Below are positions 7,766 through 57,878 of a stretch of 64,000 bases of DNA, piece by piece. The DNA lies in contig CAYYRJ010000006.1 in assembly GCA_964474085.1 (NCBI GenBank), forward strand, positions 29,514-93,513, written 5' to 3'. The stretch is from an uncultured Planctomycetales bacterium (GTDB taxonomy: Bacteria > Omnitrophota > Gorgyraeia > Zapsychrales > JANLHA01). The notes under the pieces are model-generated. The model was not told where the DNA came from. It did no database searches and saw only the letters and a program-made list of their open reading frames with translations. A program made the translations under genes and the position numbers. Position 1 is the first letter of the stretch. Each line of letters begins with the position of its first letter.

Positions 7766-8000
7766 TCGTGGTTAACGAAAACCGGTTAATAAATGGTTTA
7801 CGGCAGCCAGACAACCATGCTCATTTTGGAGGTTAGGTTCACGGCTTTGCCCTGGCGCTTTTAAGAAGTGCCAGGATCCCTTGGGAGGGATGTCCTACCC
7901 TTTCGGGTAGTTTGCCTTTGCTAATTGTCACTTGGAGTATAACATGCCCAAACGCGAAAAACCAGCTAGCCTGAAAGTAAATTTTATGCATCAGCGACGG
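7766..8000 (-). promoter_or_regulatory. Candidate structured leader or riboswitch-like RNA with c-di-GMP-I (GEMM)-like sequence blocks
   Basis: The minus-strand RNA contains GGCAAAC, a GNRA hairpin (UACCC-GAAA-GGGUA), GGAC, and later GCAAAGCC. Several further hairpins are present, for example CCUGGC...GCCAGG. It is not a clean match to the consensus. Confidence 0.2.
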
Positions 8001-51340: not shown

Positions 51341-52108
51341 TTAGAACTTATATTTCAAACCGGCGATAAATTGTCCGTCGGTTTTCTTTTTTCCTGCCGC
51401 AGGTTCGGAATTGTAATCTAAAATATACTTCAACTCCAAGTCCATATTTTTGCTCAATGGATTGGTAAAAGCTGTCTCGGAGCGCAAAAGAACGCCCGAA
51501 TCACTCTTTAGCCCGGGATAAACGGTCAAATCTTCGGAAAGAAAAGCTTTGTCAAAGATTTGTTTCTTGGCAAATGTGTGCAAGAGGGCTGTCAACGCTT
51601 CATCATCGGCTGCTTCATTGACTCGATGACGGGTAATCCGGTAACCTAAACCAGCGTCGGCATCCCACGTAAAATCCTCTCCCTTAAAAATGTGATACCC
51701 AAGACCGGCGCTTGGCGTAATACGATAATCAATGTCCGAAAAATAATCATGGTCAACTAAAATTTGTGTAACGCTAAACCAATTGTCATCTGTTCCAAAG
51801 TCATGGGAGAACTTCGCTAAAATATCCCACTTCTGGGTGTCCATGCTTTTGTTGGATTCTGAATAAAACAAATTTCCCTTAAGCGAAAATTGAGATTTAT
51901 CAAACTTTTTTAAGGCACTCGCGCTGAGATTCCCGGCGCTTTTTTGGGTATTCCCGACGGATTTGCTGTAACCGGCAAAAATATCACCCGTCCAGCCGGA
52001 AAGAAGACCTTCGTTAGTCATGGCATCATCCGCAAATGCATTCGTGCCAACTGCGGCAAAAATGAGTGTAAGGCTTGCAAAAGTTAATTTCCATAATTTC
52101 AAACTCAT
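51341..52108 (-). CDS. Putative outer membrane beta-barrel protein (DUF481/YdiY-like)
   Basis: Signal peptide, alternating beta-strand pattern, and a C-terminal YKF. Confidence 0.45.
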   Translation of the reverse strand: MSLKLWKLTFASLTLIFAAVGTNAFADDAMTNEGLLSGWTGDIFAGYSKSVGNTQKSAGNLSASALKKFDKSQFSLKGNLFYSESNKSMDTQKWDILAKFSHDFGTDDNWFSVTQILVDHDYFSDIDYRITPSAGLGYHIFKGEDFTWDADAGLGYRITRHRVNEAADDEALTALLHTFAKKQIFDKAFLSEDLTVYPGLKSDSGVLLRSETAFTNPLSKNMDLELKYILDYNSEPAAGKKKTDGQFIAGLKYKF

Positions 52109-52529: not shown

Positions 52530-53753
52530 TTGGAGCTTTTTGTTTCGCACGTTATAATGCCCGTCATGAAACCGATTACGTCAAGAAGCGCAAAACGCAT
52601 CATTCTCCAAAATGCCACACCGGCAAGAATAGTCAGCGTGGCTTTAACACAATCGCCCGGAAAAATTATCGCTGAAAATATTTTTGCGGATTCTGACCAG
52701 CCTTCTGCGGACAAAAGTGCAGTTGACGGGATTGCGATTTCCTTTAACGCGTGGAAAAAGGGAAGACTTCAATTTTTAATTAAAGGTATGCAGAAGGCTG
52801 GAATCGCCCCCAAAGTTTTGTTTAAGCCAGAACATTGTTTTGAAATCATGACTGGCGCAGTTATTCCCAAACACTGCGACTGCGTGATTCCTGTCGAAAA
52901 CGTCAAAATTGTAAAGGCCACAGCAACACTTAAGCCTGATTTAAAAATCTTTAAAGGGCAATTTATTCGTAAACAAGCCAGTGAATACAAAAAGAATGAG
53001 CGGCTTATTGCCTTCGGGACAAAAATAAATAGCACCCACATTGCGGTTTGTGCGTCAACCGGCAAGCGGCAGTTGAACGTTTTTTCACCCAAAATCGCCT
53101 TAATCGGGACAGGAGACGAGCTAATCGCTATTGACAAAAAACCGCAATCGTATCAGTCGCGTCGGTCCAATACGTATGCCCTCGAAACTCTCTTGTGTTC
53201 GCAAGGCTTTAGCGACGTGAAAAAGTTTCATTTCAATGACAATTTTTCAGTAATAAAAAAGAATTTGAGCCGTGTCCTTCTGGACTTTGACGTTGTGATT
53301 TTAAGCGGGGGAGTGTCGATGGGCAAATTTGATTTTGTTCCCGGAGTTTTAAACGAACTTCAGGTGAAAACCTTGTTTCATAAGGTCAGCCAAAAGCCGG
53401 GCAAGCCGCTTTTGTTTGCAAAAACACACGACGGCAAAGCTGTTTTTGGCTTGCCGGGCAATCCGGTCTCAACCTTGGTGTGTGCGGTGTATTATGTCTT
53501 GCCCTTTCTCTACAAGAAATGCGGCGTGCGAATCAAAGATCGAGCTGTCAGATTAGCAAAATCAATCCGTCAAAACTCAAACTTAACTTTGTTTGTGCCC
53601 GTAACTTTTAATGCCACCGCATCAGCACTGCCCGTCAAACTTAGCAGTTCGGGTAATTTTAGGGCGTTAACAGCGTCGGAAGGGTTCATTGAAGTCCCGC
53701 CAGGCACGGGGAGTTTAGAAAAAGGGAAAGAGGCAAAGTTTTTTTCATGGTAA
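52530..53753 (+). CDS. moeA: Molybdopterin molybdenumtransferase MoeA
   Basis: [19 protein letters not shown] and GLPGNPVS blocks. The exact start is uncertain. Confidence 0.75.
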
Positions 53754-54349
53754 ATTTACGCCCACCAATTTTTGGCCTTGTCCTAACCGGCGGCAAAAGC
53801 ACACGGATGAAAAAAGATAAATCGTCTTTAAAGTTTCACAATAAACCGCAGGCGATCTGTGCGTTTGAGCTTCTCTTGCCGTTGTGTGAAAAAGTTTTTA
53901 TCTCTCGGCGCAAAGGGCAAAAAATGGTTGCAAGAGAGAGCAAACTGCCGCACATTTATGATTTGAAAAAATTAAGCGACCGCGGCCCTTTGTCAGGCAT
54001 ACTTTCAGCGATGGCAAAATTTCCGAAAGCCGCGTGGCTTATCCTCGCGTGCGATTTGCCGTTTGTCGACGATAAAACGTTGCGACATCTCTTGCGTTAC
54101 CGCGACAGTACAAAAATCGCCACCGCTTACAAAAGCCGCTTTAATGATTTGCCGGAACCGTTGTGCGCGATTTATGAGCCCAAAGCACAGAGACGGTTAT
54201 TAACTTTCTTTGCAAAAGGCATAACTTGTCCGCGCAAAATTTTGATCAACTCGAAGGTGCGTTTGTTGAAGTTAAAAAACAAAAAGGCTTTGGACAACAT
54301 CAACACGCCGGAGGAATACCAAAAGGCAGTAAGTTTTTTAAAACCTTAG
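53747..54349 (+). CDS. mobA: Molybdenum cofactor guanylyltransferase MobA
   Basis: GLVLTGGKSTRM N-terminal motif; about 200 aa. Confidence 0.7.
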   Translation: MVNLRPPIFGLVLTGGKSTRMKKDKSSLKFHNKPQAICAFELLLPLCEKVFISRRKGQKMVARESKLPHIYDLKKLSDRGPLSGILSAMAKFPKAAWLILACDLPFVDDKTLRHLLRYRDSTKIATAYKSRFNDLPEPLCAIYEPKAQRRLLTFFAKGITCPRKILINSKVRLLKLKNKKALDNINTPEEYQKAVSFLKP

Positions 54350-54362
54350 CTGGAGCTTTTTT

Positions 54363-55436
54363 ATGCCAAACAGTGTGCAAAAAGAAACAAGTCCCTACAA
54401 AATTTTGTTGTCCCAAGTTCGCGAAACTCTCATTGCCGGACAAGCGCGTATCGAAGAAGAAAAGGTGCGGACCTATTGGCAGACGGGCGCGCATATTAAC
54501 AAACATATTTTAAAATATTCAAAGAAACCAGAATATGGGGCACAGATTCTCGCACGTTTGGCGCCTGACCTTAAAGTCGACAAAAATACATTGTACGATT
54601 GTCTAAAATTTGCCCGGACGTACCCAATTTTAAGCGGCCGCTTAAAATTCAAATGGTCGCATTTTCGTGAGTTAATTACAATTTCCGACGAGAGTGAGCG
54701 CAAACGTTTGGAAGAGCAGATCAAACGCAACGCTTGGACGAGCGATGAGCTTATTGCTCGCATTCATGCCCAAAAACCAGCGGCTTCCAAAAATCTTTCT
54801 CAAATTGTGGTTGAAAATCCAGTGAAAGAAAAACTTTTAACACCTTTGCGCGGAGAGCTGTTTACCTACAAAATCATCGAGCGTCCCAGCGTCAGCACTC
54901 CAACCCAAAAAGTTTTGTTGCTGGATTTGGGGTTTGGGATTTTTCGCAATCTCGACAGCCGCGTTATTTCACAATTTAAGTCCGGCGACATTGTCTGTTC
55001 AAAACCGACAGAGGATGCTTATAAATTTACGACGAAAGCCGACACATCCAAAAACGATCTTTATACCTATGAGGCGATTGTTGAAAAGATTATCGACGGA
55101 GACACTTTGAAAGTCCGCATTGACTTAGGATTTGACACCTGGAAAGACGAAACTTTGCGCCTGCGGGGAATCGATTGCCCGGAAATAGACACCCCCGAAG
55201 GGCAAGCCGCCAAGACTTTTGTACAGTCTTATATTAAGCAAGCTGACCGCATTCTCATACGCAGCAGCCGTGATGACAAGTATGGCCGCTATTTAGCAGA
55301 TGTCTTTGTTCCCCCTCTTTTGTTAAAGAGGGGGCTAGGGGGAGTTCAAGGGGAAAGTACGGACTCCACGAATTCTCAGGCCAGCATTTATTTGAATAAC
55401 TTGTTGTTACAAAACGGCCACGCTGTAAGAATGTAA
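54363..55436 (+). CDS. Two-domain protein: YhcG-family (DUF1016) N-terminal domain fused to a staphylococcal-nuclease-like (SNase/thermonuclease) domain
   Basis: The N-terminal KWSHFRELITISDESERKRLEE...AWTSDELIARI matches the YhcG N-domain (LSWSHY...W..REL). The C-terminal GDTLKVRIDLG...LRLRGIDCPE..TPEGQAAK...DKYGRYLADVFV matches the SNase pattern (GDT.V...RL.GID.PE....G..A.....D.YGR.LA.V). Confidence 0.55.
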   Translation: MPNSVQKETSPYKILLSQVRETLIAGQARIEEEKVRTYWQTGAHINKHILKYSKKPEYGAQILARLAPDLKVDKNTLYDCLKFARTYPILSGRLKFKWSHFRELITISDESERKRLEEQIKRNAWTSDELIARIHAQKPAASKNLSQIVVENPVKEKLLTPLRGELFTYKIIERPSVSTPTQKVLLLDLGFGIFRNLDSRVISQFKSGDIVCSKPTEDAYKFTTKADTSKNDLYTYEAIVEKIIDGDTLKVRIDLGFDTWKDETLRLRGIDCPEIDTPEGQAAKTFVQSYIKQADRILIRSSRDDKYGRYLADVFVPPLLLKRGLGGVQGESTDSTNSQASIYLNNLLLQNGHAVRM

Positions 55437-55460
55437 ATTTAAGAAATATTTTCGTAGGCA

Positions 55461-56429
55461 ATGGTCACGACCGTTGCTTCTACGAGCAAGAAAGGATTAC
55501 AGGTAAATTCTAATATGAAATTCAATTCAAAATCGAATGATGAGTTTATTTCATCCATACATAATGAATTTAATTTTCTCGTCGTTGAGTATGGATTTGA
55601 AAGAATAATTGAGGCTCCATTTTTAACTTATCGAAATGGCAATTTGGGAGTGTTTGTTGACATATCTCGACAAGAAACTGTATCGCCATATATCCAAGTG
55701 GGGTACTTCTCGAAGGAATATCCATCTCTATGGAAACTTGGTAAACAGTGCTCACTACTTTCATTTATTGAACTTAAGAAACCTCAGATTAATACGGATA
55801 GTATGCTTAGAAAGTTTAATAGGATGAAGCCCATCGATTTATTCAAAGAAGGAGCTACTTTGTTGAAAGAATTTATTGGGGATATTCTTTCGAAAGGACC
55901 AGAGGCGTTAGAAGAGGTTAAGAGATTTGAACATGAGAAGTATCTTACAAGGACTGATGCCAATATAAATGAGGATTTTGAAAGAACGATTTCAACGGCT
56001 TTGGAACGATTTAAAGAAAGAGATTTTGAAGCTGTCGTCTTTCATCTTAGTGAACATGAGAATATACTTTCGCCGCAAGTGGTAGCGATTTTTAAATACG
56101 CAAAAGAATTTATTAAGTCCCAATCGACGGATCAACCGTTAACAAAAGAAGAAATAGCACTTTTAAAACCAGTTGAACATCTTATGTTCAAAACAATCCA
56201 CATCCAATACTTCGCTATTTTAAGAGAACAAAGGGGAGTCAGTGAAGAAACTTTCACGACTAACCTAAAAACTGCACAGGAACTTTATGCATTGATAGAT
56301 TCACTCTATTTTTTTAGCCTGACACCGGACATGGTTCGCGTCGCAATCAACAACGAATTTTGCCCTTGGGAAACCATCCTAAAGTCAGGCGACCACGTCG
56401 TTTTTATCCCGCCTGTTGCCGGCGGTTAA
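55461..56429 (+). CDS. Fusion of an unknown roughly 240-aa N-terminal domain to a C-terminal MoaD/ThiS-like beta-grasp sulfur-carrier domain ending in GG
   Basis: The last 80 aa (IHIQYFAILREQRG...KSGDHVVFIPPVAGG) are MoaD-like with a terminal Gly-Gly. The upstream 720 bp are markedly AT-rich yet contain no stop codons, arguing for translation. An internal in-frame ATG at 56184 could give stand-alone MoaD. Confidence 0.5.
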   Translation: MVTTVASTSKKGLQVNSNMKFNSKSNDEFISSIHNEFNFLVVEYGFERIIEAPFLTYRNGNLGVFVDISRQETVSPYIQVGYFSKEYPSLWKLGKQCSLLSFIELKKPQINTDSMLRKFNRMKPIDLFKEGATLLKEFIGDILSKGPEALEEVKRFEHEKYLTRTDANINEDFERTISTALERFKERDFEAVVFHLSEHENILSPQVVAIFKYAKEFIKSQSTDQPLTKEEIALLKPVEHLMFKTIHIQYFAILREQRGVSEETFTTNLKTAQELYALIDSLYFFSLTPDMVRVAINNEFCPWETILKSGDHVVFIPPVAGG

Positions 56430-56481
56430 TCGCATAACAAACGGTTGCGGGCACAAAAACTTTTTGCTATACTCTGGCCTT

Positions 56482-56778
56482 ATGAATTCTTATTTTCTTT
56501 TAGTGTTTTTTGCTTTTTGGGCCAATGTGCCGCTGGGTTATTTTCGAGAGAATACAAAAAAGTTTTCGTTTGCATGGTTTTTTTTCGTTCATGCCTCGAT
56601 CCCATTTATTATTCTTTTACGTCTTAAATTGCATATTTCCCCATGGTTTATTCCCGTTTCGATTTTGGCTGCGATTATGGGACAATTGACAGGCAGCCGG
56701 TTACGACAAATTAAATCCCTTAATATCTCTTTGTTAAAACAGTTCGCAAAGCGACGGGGATCAACCAAGGAGCATTAA
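56482..56778 (+). CDS. Small integral membrane protein (possible AtpZ/AtpI-like atp operon leader gene)
   Basis: Three predicted TM helices, immediately upstream of the atp operon. The ORF track starts at 56416 but overlaps the previous gene. Confidence 0.35.
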   Translation: MNSYFLLVFFAFWANVPLGYFRENTKKFSFAWFFFVHASIPFIILLRLKLHISPWFIPVSILAAIMGQLTGSRLRQIKSLNISLLKQFAKRRGSTKEH

Positions 56779-57092
56779 TGGTTATCGATGACATTGTGAT
56801 TTTGACGTTCGGTGCGTTTTTATTTTTGGGTGCGTTTTTTGGCTTAAGAGCTGGGAGCAAAGTTTCATTGATTATGGGTGTCGTGTCCGGCAGTTTGATC
56901 CTCGCGGGGGATGGGATTGCGTATTTTAACAAAAGGGCCGGCCTGTTGTTTCTGATGATCGTCTCCGGACTTTTAGTTGTCAGTTTTGTCCAGAGAACCC
57001 TTAAGACCCAAAAAATGATGCCCGCCGGGATGCTATTAATTGTGAGTAGCTTGTTTTTTGGGTACATAATCGTTCGATTTCTGAACACTTGA
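56778..57092 (+). CDS. Small integral membrane protein (possible AtpI-like)
   Basis: 104 aa, 3-4 hydrophobic helices, start/stop coupled to atpB. Confidence 0.35.
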   Translation: MVIDDIVILTFGAFLFLGAFFGLRAGSKVSLIMGVVSGSLILAGDGIAYFNKRAGLLFLMIVSGLLVVSFVQRTLKTQKMMPAGMLLIVSSLFFGYIIVRFLNT

Positions 57093-57878
57093 TTGTTTAT
57101 GAGCCAGCCTTCGACAGAACCGTTTGATCTGACGCAATATATCATGCACCACGTGCAAAATAGCAGCACGTGGAATTTGCCGTTTGGTCAGCCGTTTAAT
57201 CTGCCAAATTTCTTGTCTTTGCACAGTTTAATGCTAATATTAGGGGCCTTTTTTTTGCTTATTTTATTTTGTGTATTTTACCGCAAGAATGAGGTTGTTC
57301 CGACGGGAATCACGAACATGCTCGAGGCGTTTGTCGTGTTTATTCGGGACAAGATCGCCATTAATAATCTTGGGGAAGAAGACGGAAAAAAATTTACCCC
57401 TTATTTTTGTACGCTCTTTTTCTTTATTCTTATTTTGAACCTGATGGGAAAAATCCCTCTGTTTGCCTGTGCGACAGCCAATATCAATGTGACGGCGGCG
57501 CTGGCGTTGATTACGTTTTCTTTTATGACGTTTGGCGCGATTAAACGAAATGGGCTCGTCGGATATTTTCGTTCATTTGTCATCCCGGGGCTGCCTTTAC
57601 CAATGCTTTTTTTGGTTGTCCCGCTTGAAATTTTGGGGATTTTTACCCGGACCTTTGCTTTAGCCGTCCGTTTGTTTGCCAACATGATCGCCGGACACAT
57701 GATGACTCTCGCATTTTTGGGCCTCGTGGCTTTGTTCGGCTGGTTGTTGACTCCTGCGGCTCTGTTGTTTGCGCTTTTTATCGGATTGTTAGAAATTTTG
57801 GTTGTTTTTTTGCAAGCTTATATTTTTACTTTGTTGTCAGCGATTTTTATTGGCCAAGTTTATCATCCAAAACATTAA
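57093..57878 (+). CDS. atpB: ATP synthase F0 subunit a
   Basis: LAVRLFANMIAGHMM signature with the essential Arg. TTG at 57093, or the ATG at 57099. Confidence 0.9.
   Translation: MFMSQPSTEPFDLTQYIMHHVQNSSTWNLPFGQPFNLPNFLSLHSLMLILGAFFLLILFCVFYRKNEVVPTGITNMLEAFVVFIRDKIAINNLGEEDGKKFTPYFCTLFFFILILNLMGKIPLFACATANINVTAALALITFSFMTFGAIKRNGLVGYFRSFVIPGLPLPMLFLVVPLEILGIFTRTFALAVRLFANMIAGHMMTLAFLGLVALFGWLLTPAALLFALFIGLLEILVVFLQAYIFTLLSAIFIGQVYHPKH

Follow-up and report, generated by a model that had tools for sequence, protein, structure and literature searches.

A DUF1016_N–staphylococcal nuclease fusion protein encoded by a single-gene insertion in a molybdenum cofactor operon of an Omnitrophota genome

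Introduction

To our knowledge, no function is known for the canonical proteins of the YhcG/DUF1016 group (COG4804; Pfam PF17761 plus PF06250; PADLOC candidate system PDC-S02). Their N-terminal domain, DUF1016_N, is canonically partnered with a PD-(D/E)XK DNA nuclease, and their genes lack conserved neighbours and occur as several paralogues per genome (PMC1189080), are found on mobile elements (PMC4316617) and are enriched in restriction–modification (RM) loci (PMC9881135). Here, a gene is described in which this N-terminal domain is joined to a staphylococcal nuclease (SNase) domain, and which interrupts the molybdenum cofactor (Moco) operon of an uncultured member of the phylum Omnitrophota. 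The gene lies within a 64,000-nucleotide stretch of contig CAYYRJ010000006.1 (assembly GCA_964474085.1), hereafter the window.

The encoded protein shares with the YhcG/DUF1016 group its helical N-terminal domain, matched above the Pfam cut-off, and the hallmarks YW..G, YG, W.H.R and WS..EL. Its genomic behaviour is also the same, i.e. stand-alone genes without conserved neighbours, several paralogues per genome, and occurrence on plasmids and mobile elements. It differs in having no PD-(D/E)XK domain (motif E-D-E(I/L/V)K), in place of which stand a degenerate oligonucleotide/oligosaccharide-binding (OB) domain and an SNase domain of the active type, and the window gene is found in a Moco operon rather than in an RM locus or mobile element. 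With regard to PDC-S02, the hidden Markov model match is confined to the N-terminal domain (N-domain) rather than spanning the whole protein, and the window locus does not have a defence-island or RM location.

Domain architecture of the nuclease

The nuclease gene is complete (Table 1), with a start codon 13 nt downstream of the mobA stop codon (54347-54349), and a protein identical to its 357-amino acid (aa) product is encoded by two metagenome contigs. The GC content of the gene is native, matching that of the genome, the protein has no signal peptide, and no second copy was found within the window. No promoter-like or terminator-like sites above the chance background were present in the gaps between mobA, the nuclease gene and moaD.

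Table 1. Features of the nuclease gene, its product and the surrounding insertions, in window coordinates
Feature	Window position	Protein position	Strand	Basis or remark
mobA, left flank of insertion	53747..54349		+	Pfam NTP_transf_3
GGAG ribosome-binding site of nuclease gene	54352..54355		+	read from sequence; 8 nt 5' of ATG
Nuclease gene, complete (357 aa + stop codon)	54363..55436		+	open reading frame (ORF) list; identical protein elsewhere; ratio of nonsynonymous to synonymous substitution rates (dN/dS) against contig L083
All-helical DUF1016_N (YhcG N-terminal) domain, probable helix-turn-helix DNA-binding module	54390..54773	aa 10-137	+	Pfam; PADLOC; model; Foldseek
Variable linker, predicted disordered	54774..54833	aa 138-157	+	predicted local distance difference test (pLDDT) <50 at aa 139-152
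Middle beta domain, degenerate SNase OB-fold duplicate	54834..55058	aa 158-232	+	model; hhalign; shuffles; conservation
Catalytic SNase (thermonuclease-like) domain	55059..55433	aa 233-357	+	Pfam; PDB alignment; Foldseek; phrog_452
Variable disordered loop within SNase domain	55332..55379	aa 324-339	+	pLDDT <50; length differs greatly in family alignment
AT-rich lineage-specific insertion (747 bp), outside nuclease system	55437..56183		+	no L083 counterpart; GC 34-39%
moaD, right flank of ancestral junction	56184..56429		+	ThiS/MoaD at aa 246-322 of ORF 55461-56429

The initial annotation of this stretch, made from the sequence alone, had proposed a YhcG N-terminal domain fused to an SNase-like domain that replaces the usual PD-(D/E)XK domain, and this fusion was borne out by Pfam, PDB alignment and Foldseek. 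All of the motifs on which the proposal was based were recovered (KFKWSHFREL...AWTSDEL, IDGDTLKV, LRLRGIDCPE and DKYGRYLADV), and both expected Pfam families scored above their curated cut-offs, namely PF17761 at aa 27-136 (E=2.8e-14, 53.8 bits against a cut-off of 32.8) and PF00565 at aa 264-354 (E=1.5e-7, 32.2 bits against a cut-off of 21), with no match to PF06250 at E<=1. The assignment of the C-terminal 150 aa to SNase was correct as to the domain but not as to its extent, which is really the last ~125 aa, and the two-part architecture was incomplete, having overlooked a conserved middle domain of ~70 aa.

Further support for the SNase domain came from a phmmer search of the PDB, which aligned aa 228-323 to S. 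aureus thermonuclease (E ~1e-6), and from PHROGs, in which the closest profile match was phrog_452 ‘endonuclease’ (aa 219-316, 1.6e-28). When an AlphaFold model built from 36 homologues (mean pLDDT 79.8) was searched with Foldseek, the top match was SNase, with a target-normalised template modelling (TM) score of 0.68 and a root-mean-square deviation of 2.2 Å over 128 columns. Alignment to the S. aureus enzyme placed D247, R266, D271, E274 and R309 on Asp21, Arg35, Asp40, Glu43 and Arg87, respectively, and these five positions are invariant or nearly so in the 36 aligned homologues. Among 150 representatives, the equivalents of Asp21 and Arg35 were each kept in 148, that of Arg87 in 144 and that of Glu43 in 139, the Asp40 position held Asp in 122 and Asn in 25, and all five residues occurred jointly in 110 of 145. 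Judged by alignment and fold superposition, the domain carries an intact set of catalytic residues, and the protein is predicted to have nuclease activity. Relative to the described staphylococcal nucleases (PF00565; S. aureus Nuc and phage phrog_452), the OB-fold and all five catalytic or metal-binding residues are shared; the differences are the missing signal peptide and helix 3, the predicted structure stopping after helix 2 of the fold, the loop insertion at aa 324-339, Cys or Ala at the Thr41 position, and the inactive duplicate and putative targeting domain that precede the SNase domain.

The middle domain is modelled as five strands and one short helix in OB-fold order, and lacks the DGDT metal-binding motif. 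Comparison of sub-profiles with hhalign aligned its segment LFTYKIIERPSVSTPTQKVLLLDLGFGIFR to LYTYEAIVEKIIDGDT-LKVRIDLGFDTWK of the SNase domain with a probability of 77.7% (P=1.9e-5), whereas control comparisons of the N-domain with either sub-profile gave P ~0.5. In 200 column shuffles the null score was 12.0 +/- 2.8 (maximum 26.7), and none of the 200 reached the observed 31.7. The middle domain is thus a degenerate duplicate of the SNase OB-fold. A match of an S. epidermidis phage sequence to aa 133-315 was discarded, as it crosses a gene boundary and is uninformative on this domain.

A DLGF hairpin of the middle domain (window 54924-54935, aa 188-191) is invariant: D188, G190 and F191 are each kept in 149-150 of the 150 diverse representatives, more than the Asp40 or Glu43 equivalents in the active domain. 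The SNase domain itself has a second DLGF, at aa 254-257, which S. aureus SNase lacks.

The N-domain is predicted to consist of seven helices and is separated from the middle domain by a linker with a mean pairwise identity of 12% in the family. A total of 17 PADLOC models of PDC-S02 matched at E<1e-5, all covering the N-domain only (aa ~9-138). No relative of aa 1-232 was found in the PDB by sequence search, and a Foldseek search of the PDB with the same segment returned ParB/Spo0J/Noc DNA-binding domains as its top 11 matches, all with E values of 0.075-0.2, probabilities of 0.95-0.99 and target-normalised TM scores of up to 0.64, with the SopB DNA-binding domain further down the list. A ParB profile for hhalign was built from genuine Spo0J sequences and is shallow, comprising Bacillus only at 81-100% identity. 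Against it, aa 65-132 aligned to Spo0J 140-210 (P=0.043, probability 1.2%) in the same register as in Foldseek, such that two helices at aa 65-86 fall on the Spo0J helix-turn-helix and the family segments WSHFREL and TSDELI pair with GHGRTLL and NVRQLE of Spo0J, respectively. ParB/Spo0J/Noc (PF17762 HTH_ParB) is the best structural match of the N-domain, with a similarity below significance by sequence and by profile, and the protein lacks both the N-terminal CTPase domain and the C-terminal dimerisation domain of ParB. On the basis of the model, the N-domain weakly resembles ParB/Noc DNA-binding domains, and a ParB-like helix-turn-helix is to be taken as a lead rather than a result; the domain would most likely bind DNA through a helix-turn-helix.

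The tandem pairing of a degenerate with an active SN-like domain also recalls multi-SN proteins such as Tudor-SN (SND1), which contains tandem SNase-like OB domains, some of them without catalytic residues. An RNA-acting nuclease of this kind, serving in RNA turnover or as a toxin, would be compatible with the ability of SNase to cleave RNA and DNA alike and with a weak OB_RNB match at aa 226-254. Tudor-SN, however, is a eukaryotic protein in which four to five SN domains are combined with a Tudor domain and a YhcG-type domain is lacking. Action on RNA is considered the least probable of the alternatives weighed here, given that the sole structural resemblance of the N-domain is to domains that bind double-stranded DNA, that its canonical partners are PD-(D/E)XK DNA nucleases (PMC1189080), and that no RNA-metabolism context is apparent.

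Size and distribution of the family

When 5.8 billion proteins were searched, 565 entries of the 90%-clustered database matched; the 120 best were full length, 43-91% identical to the window protein and almost all annotated with PF17761 and PF00565, under the names ‘DUF1016 N-terminal domain-containing protein’, ‘thermonuclease family protein’ and ‘endonuclease YncB’. Of 1.84 billion 50%-identity representatives searched exhaustively with a profile, 944 matched at E<=1e-30, and nearly all of the best 150 were full length. In contigs taken from one genome per species, relatives were encoded at no fewer than 347 loci (>=347), mainly in Omnitrophota and Opitutaceae/Verrucomicrobiota, with some in Latescibacterota, Elusimicrobiota and Alphaproteobacteria. 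The best 80 of these loci came from 64 assemblies, 11 of which carried two or three divergent copies. With these numbers, the architecture can no longer be called unusual, as it was at first; the nuclease is best described as belonging to a large, database-visible, unstudied family, a nuclease-swapped variant of the YhcG kind. A literature search found no paper naming PF17761 or DUF1016_N, and none on the fusion.

A distant family member built of these three modules was detected on 24 Leptospira plasmids (BLASTP 2e-27). The copy on plasmid pDO6 of Leptospira weilii (WP_142499955.1; L139:5764-6762) is found among RHS/polymorphic-toxin cassettes, and has Trp at the Asp40-equivalent position (IRLHNVWAAE), so that it may be catalytically altered. 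No other version was encountered in cultured organisms, so that the Leptospira protein offers an accessible model for experiments. A phage origin of the family was rejected, as matches in IMG/VR and in 50,697 phage records were to the SNase domain only, with no full-length member in either.

Insertion between mobA and moaD

The gene is flanked, as had been described, by moeA and mobA on one side and the atp operon on the other. In a contig of a related metagenome-assembled genome (L083), a nuclease 73% identical to that of the window occupies the same position in the same gene order (mscL, moeA, mobA, nuclease, moaD, then the atp operon), and blastn showed the two to be collinear at ~77% identity through the nuclease gene. 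Right of the nuclease, moaD of the window begins at an internal Met of ORF 55461-56429, from which it aligns with the 81-aa moaD of L083 from the first codon. Metagenome contigs were scanned for MobA relatives, giving 80 loci at 28-74% identity; the nuclease was present in none of them, and mobA was followed directly by moaD in ~50. The closest outgroup, L141 (MobA identity 72%), has an empty mobA|moaD junction with a gap of 15 bp, in which the site reads TAA-CTGCCT-ATG, and the junction of this type contains TAACTGCCTATG. At the filled site of L083, the ORF with ~13 nt upstream and 7 nt downstream stands immediately 5' of the same TGCCT-ATG. Neither terminal inverted repeats nor target-site duplications exceeded chance levels at the insertion, and the window contains no tRNA gene, on which grounds a transposon or integrative element was rejected. 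The nuclease gene was inserted alone and without a scar between mobA and moaD, a conclusion that concerns one locus, and is not part of a small island as initially supposed.

Between the window and L083, dN/dS was 0.20 for the whole nuclease gene, and 0.24, 0.29 and 0.044 for the N-domain, the linker plus middle domain and the SNase domain, respectively, compared with 0.17 for moeA and 0.16 for moaD. The gene has been under purifying selection since its insertion. The similarity of these whole-gene values to one another, together with the shared slot in L083, a nucleotide divergence like that of the neighbouring genes, GC content as in the genome, a ribosome-binding site, operon-like spacing and the absence of promoter or terminator signals between the genes, would also fit a vertically inherited housekeeping nuclease of DNA repair, recombination or nucleic-acid turnover, with no role in conflict with foreign DNA. 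Such an enzyme is nevertheless difficult to reconcile with the junction lacking the nuclease in all 80 MobA-relative loci, with the patchy occurrence of the family across phyla and its two or three divergent paralogues per genome, and with the distant plasmid copies lying among toxin cassettes in Leptospira. The homologue neighbourhoods bear on the same question and are given below; overall, a housekeeping role is considered unlikely.

The form of the insertion also invites comparison with free-standing homing endonucleases, with which this one locus shares an intergenic insertion, empty alleles in relatives and the absence of transposon scars. In a selfish gene of this type, the specific site recognised by the N-domain would here be the empty mobA|moaD junction; after cleavage by the SNase domain, repair would copy the gene in. 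Consistent with this, the ORF with its short flanks was placed without scar into a 6-nt intergenic spacer, neither transposon ends nor target-site duplications are present, several divergent copies occur per genome, each at a different site, and the layout of a DNA-binding module and a nuclease module is that of free-standing homing endonucleases. However, a single insertion event is resolved, no site is recurrently occupied across lineages (the largest cluster of shared neighbours comprised six of ~74 loci), tight same-strand spacing from the upstream gene was seen in just 21 of 69 loci, SNase, normally a non-specific nuclease, is not among the known homing-endonuclease folds, and homing genes tend to decay after fixation, long and strong purifying selection on them being unusual. 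A homing-like selfish gene is accordingly regarded as improbable, and it is more doubtful still that the family would constitute a new homing-endonuclease-like class in which an SNase, steered by a ParB-like helix-turn-helix, spreads precisely into the spacers of conserved operons.

Neighbourhoods of homologues and defence context

Approximately 74 homologue loci were examined, and 132 immediate neighbours of 69 homologues were scanned against Pfam and PADLOC. The neighbours differed in size and orientation, and the more distant homologues, at 59% identity to the window protein, lie in unrelated contexts. The 132 neighbours were mixed housekeeping genes with a few toxin–antitoxin-like or RM-like genes; no family occurred more than three times, and no PADLOC family matched more than two of them. 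The predominance of ordinary metabolic genes among these neighbours is in keeping with the housekeeping explanation raised above, while the lack of any conserved neighbourhood speaks against it.

The initial annotation had suggested a defence setting, which is not upheld, as the sole PADLOC family matched by the nuclease is the candidate PDC-S02, by way of the N-domain only, and no enrichment for defence genes was seen beside the homologues. A defence island was rejected, the window having no defence neighbours and the 132 homologue neighbours showing nothing recurrent, and a conserved partner, immunity or antitoxin gene was rejected on account of the small size of the largest neighbour cluster. 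Some 50 bp upstream of one homologue (P0007, 59% identity), and in the same orientation, lies a gene for a small XRE-type HTH_3 protein (L085:5674-5949 and L086); HTH_3 was found in just two of the 132 neighbours, and so is probably no general partner.

Neighbouring indels and other features of the window

The insertion that follows the nuclease gene encodes a 241-aa orphan ORF (55461-56183) in frame with moaD, giving a predicted fusion of 322 aa. The one homologue of the orphan in 5.8 billion proteins is the same fusion, and no Pfam or PHROG match was obtained. In L083 moaD is a standalone 81-aa gene, and in the window it retains its own ATG at 56184. The orphan may have arisen de novo or be evolving very fast, or moaD may still be produced as a separate protein. 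The downstream ORF was rejected as a partner or functional fusion of the nuclease, since its orphan N-terminal part is absent from L083 and moaD is standalone elsewhere; the AT-rich fusion gene formerly noted beside the nuclease gene is an unrelated orphan insertion joined in frame to moaD by chance.

The stretch between moaD and atpB (window 56474-57136, L083 6200-7568) also differs between the two genomes, with hemA (glutamyl-tRNA reductase) present only in L083 and a Tmemb_14-family membrane gene (56778-57092) only in the window. The junction of the Moco and atp clusters seems to be a hotspot of gene gain and loss. A further indel nearby is window segment 51282-52134, in which a DUF481 gene (Pfam E=1.1e-40; ORF 51341-52108, minus strand) separates a cytochrome-c assembly gene from mscL; L083 lacks the segment, and there the two genes adjoin. 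The only Rfam match in the window is a c-di-GMP-I riboswitch aptamer (RF01051) on the minus strand at 7799-7926, with 39.8 bits against a gathering score of 35.

Proposed mechanism and role

The reading favoured here, with about an even chance of being correct, is that of a horizontally acquired, stand-alone nuclease directed to DNA by its N-domain and serving in a conflict-type role. The occurrence of the same N-domain on PD-(D/E)XK nucleases in YhcG and on SNase here suggests that it would be a recognition module and that the nuclease is interchangeable. In the proposed mechanism, the protein would be cytoplasmic and act alone through three modules: a helical YhcG-type N-domain, most likely binding DNA by a helix-turn-helix; a catalytically dead, duplicated SNase-like OB domain, probably in nucleic-acid contact or regulation; and a catalytically intact SNase domain that would hydrolyse the phosphodiester backbone with a divalent metal. 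The N-domain would steer the otherwise non-specific cutter to particular DNA. The gene came into the lineage by the scar-less insertion and is maintained under purifying selection, and it would now share a transcript with the Moco operon.

The family resembles canonical DUF1016 genes in its behaviour, as regards the lack of conserved neighbours, multiple paralogues, mobile elements and RM loci, which makes a conflict-type role the most likely. Signs of mobility or conflict include multiple divergent copies, varied contexts, and the copies on Leptospira plasmids among toxin cassettes. By analogy with the canonical group, the protein would most likely take part in nucleic-acid conflict, either in a restriction-like manner on foreign DNA or as a selfish nuclease. 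The alternatives were ranked by weight as a housekeeping nuclease, then a homing-like selfish gene, then an RNA-directed nuclease.

Several points weigh against a DNA-targeting, conflict-type nuclease. We know of no biochemical data for the DUF1016_N-SNase family or for canonical YhcG. SNase enzymes normally need millimolar Ca2+ and act extracellularly, whereas the nuclease described here has no signal peptide; its SNase domain is without helix 3, only positions 1-74 of the 107 in the Pfam model being matched. The ParB-like fold match is not significant, with no Foldseek match at E<=1e-3 and an hhalign probability of 1.2%. The window gene sits among housekeeping genes at native GC content with no defence or mobile-element neighbours, the immediate neighbours of the 69 homologues show neither defence enrichment nor a recurrent partner, and no full-length member was found on 2.9 million IMG/VR viral contigs. 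In addition, the one PDC-S02 representative assayed in a preprint was not among the systems protecting against T7, T5 or T4.

Implications

The main interest of the nuclease is its modular logic, its internal SNase duplication and its clean single-gene insertion into an operon. A large sister family that keeps the N-domain and swaps the cutter argues that the N-domain would be a targeting or sensing module to which interchangeable nucleases are attached, the same design logic as in Type IV restriction enzymes and homing endonucleases. For experimental work, the family offers two natural chimeras, the hypothesis of a ParB-like helix-turn-helix and a candidate target in the empty mobA|moaD junction. 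The distribution of the family further indicates that intracellular, multi-domain SNase proteins are abundant in the genomes of Omnitrophota and Opitutaceae.

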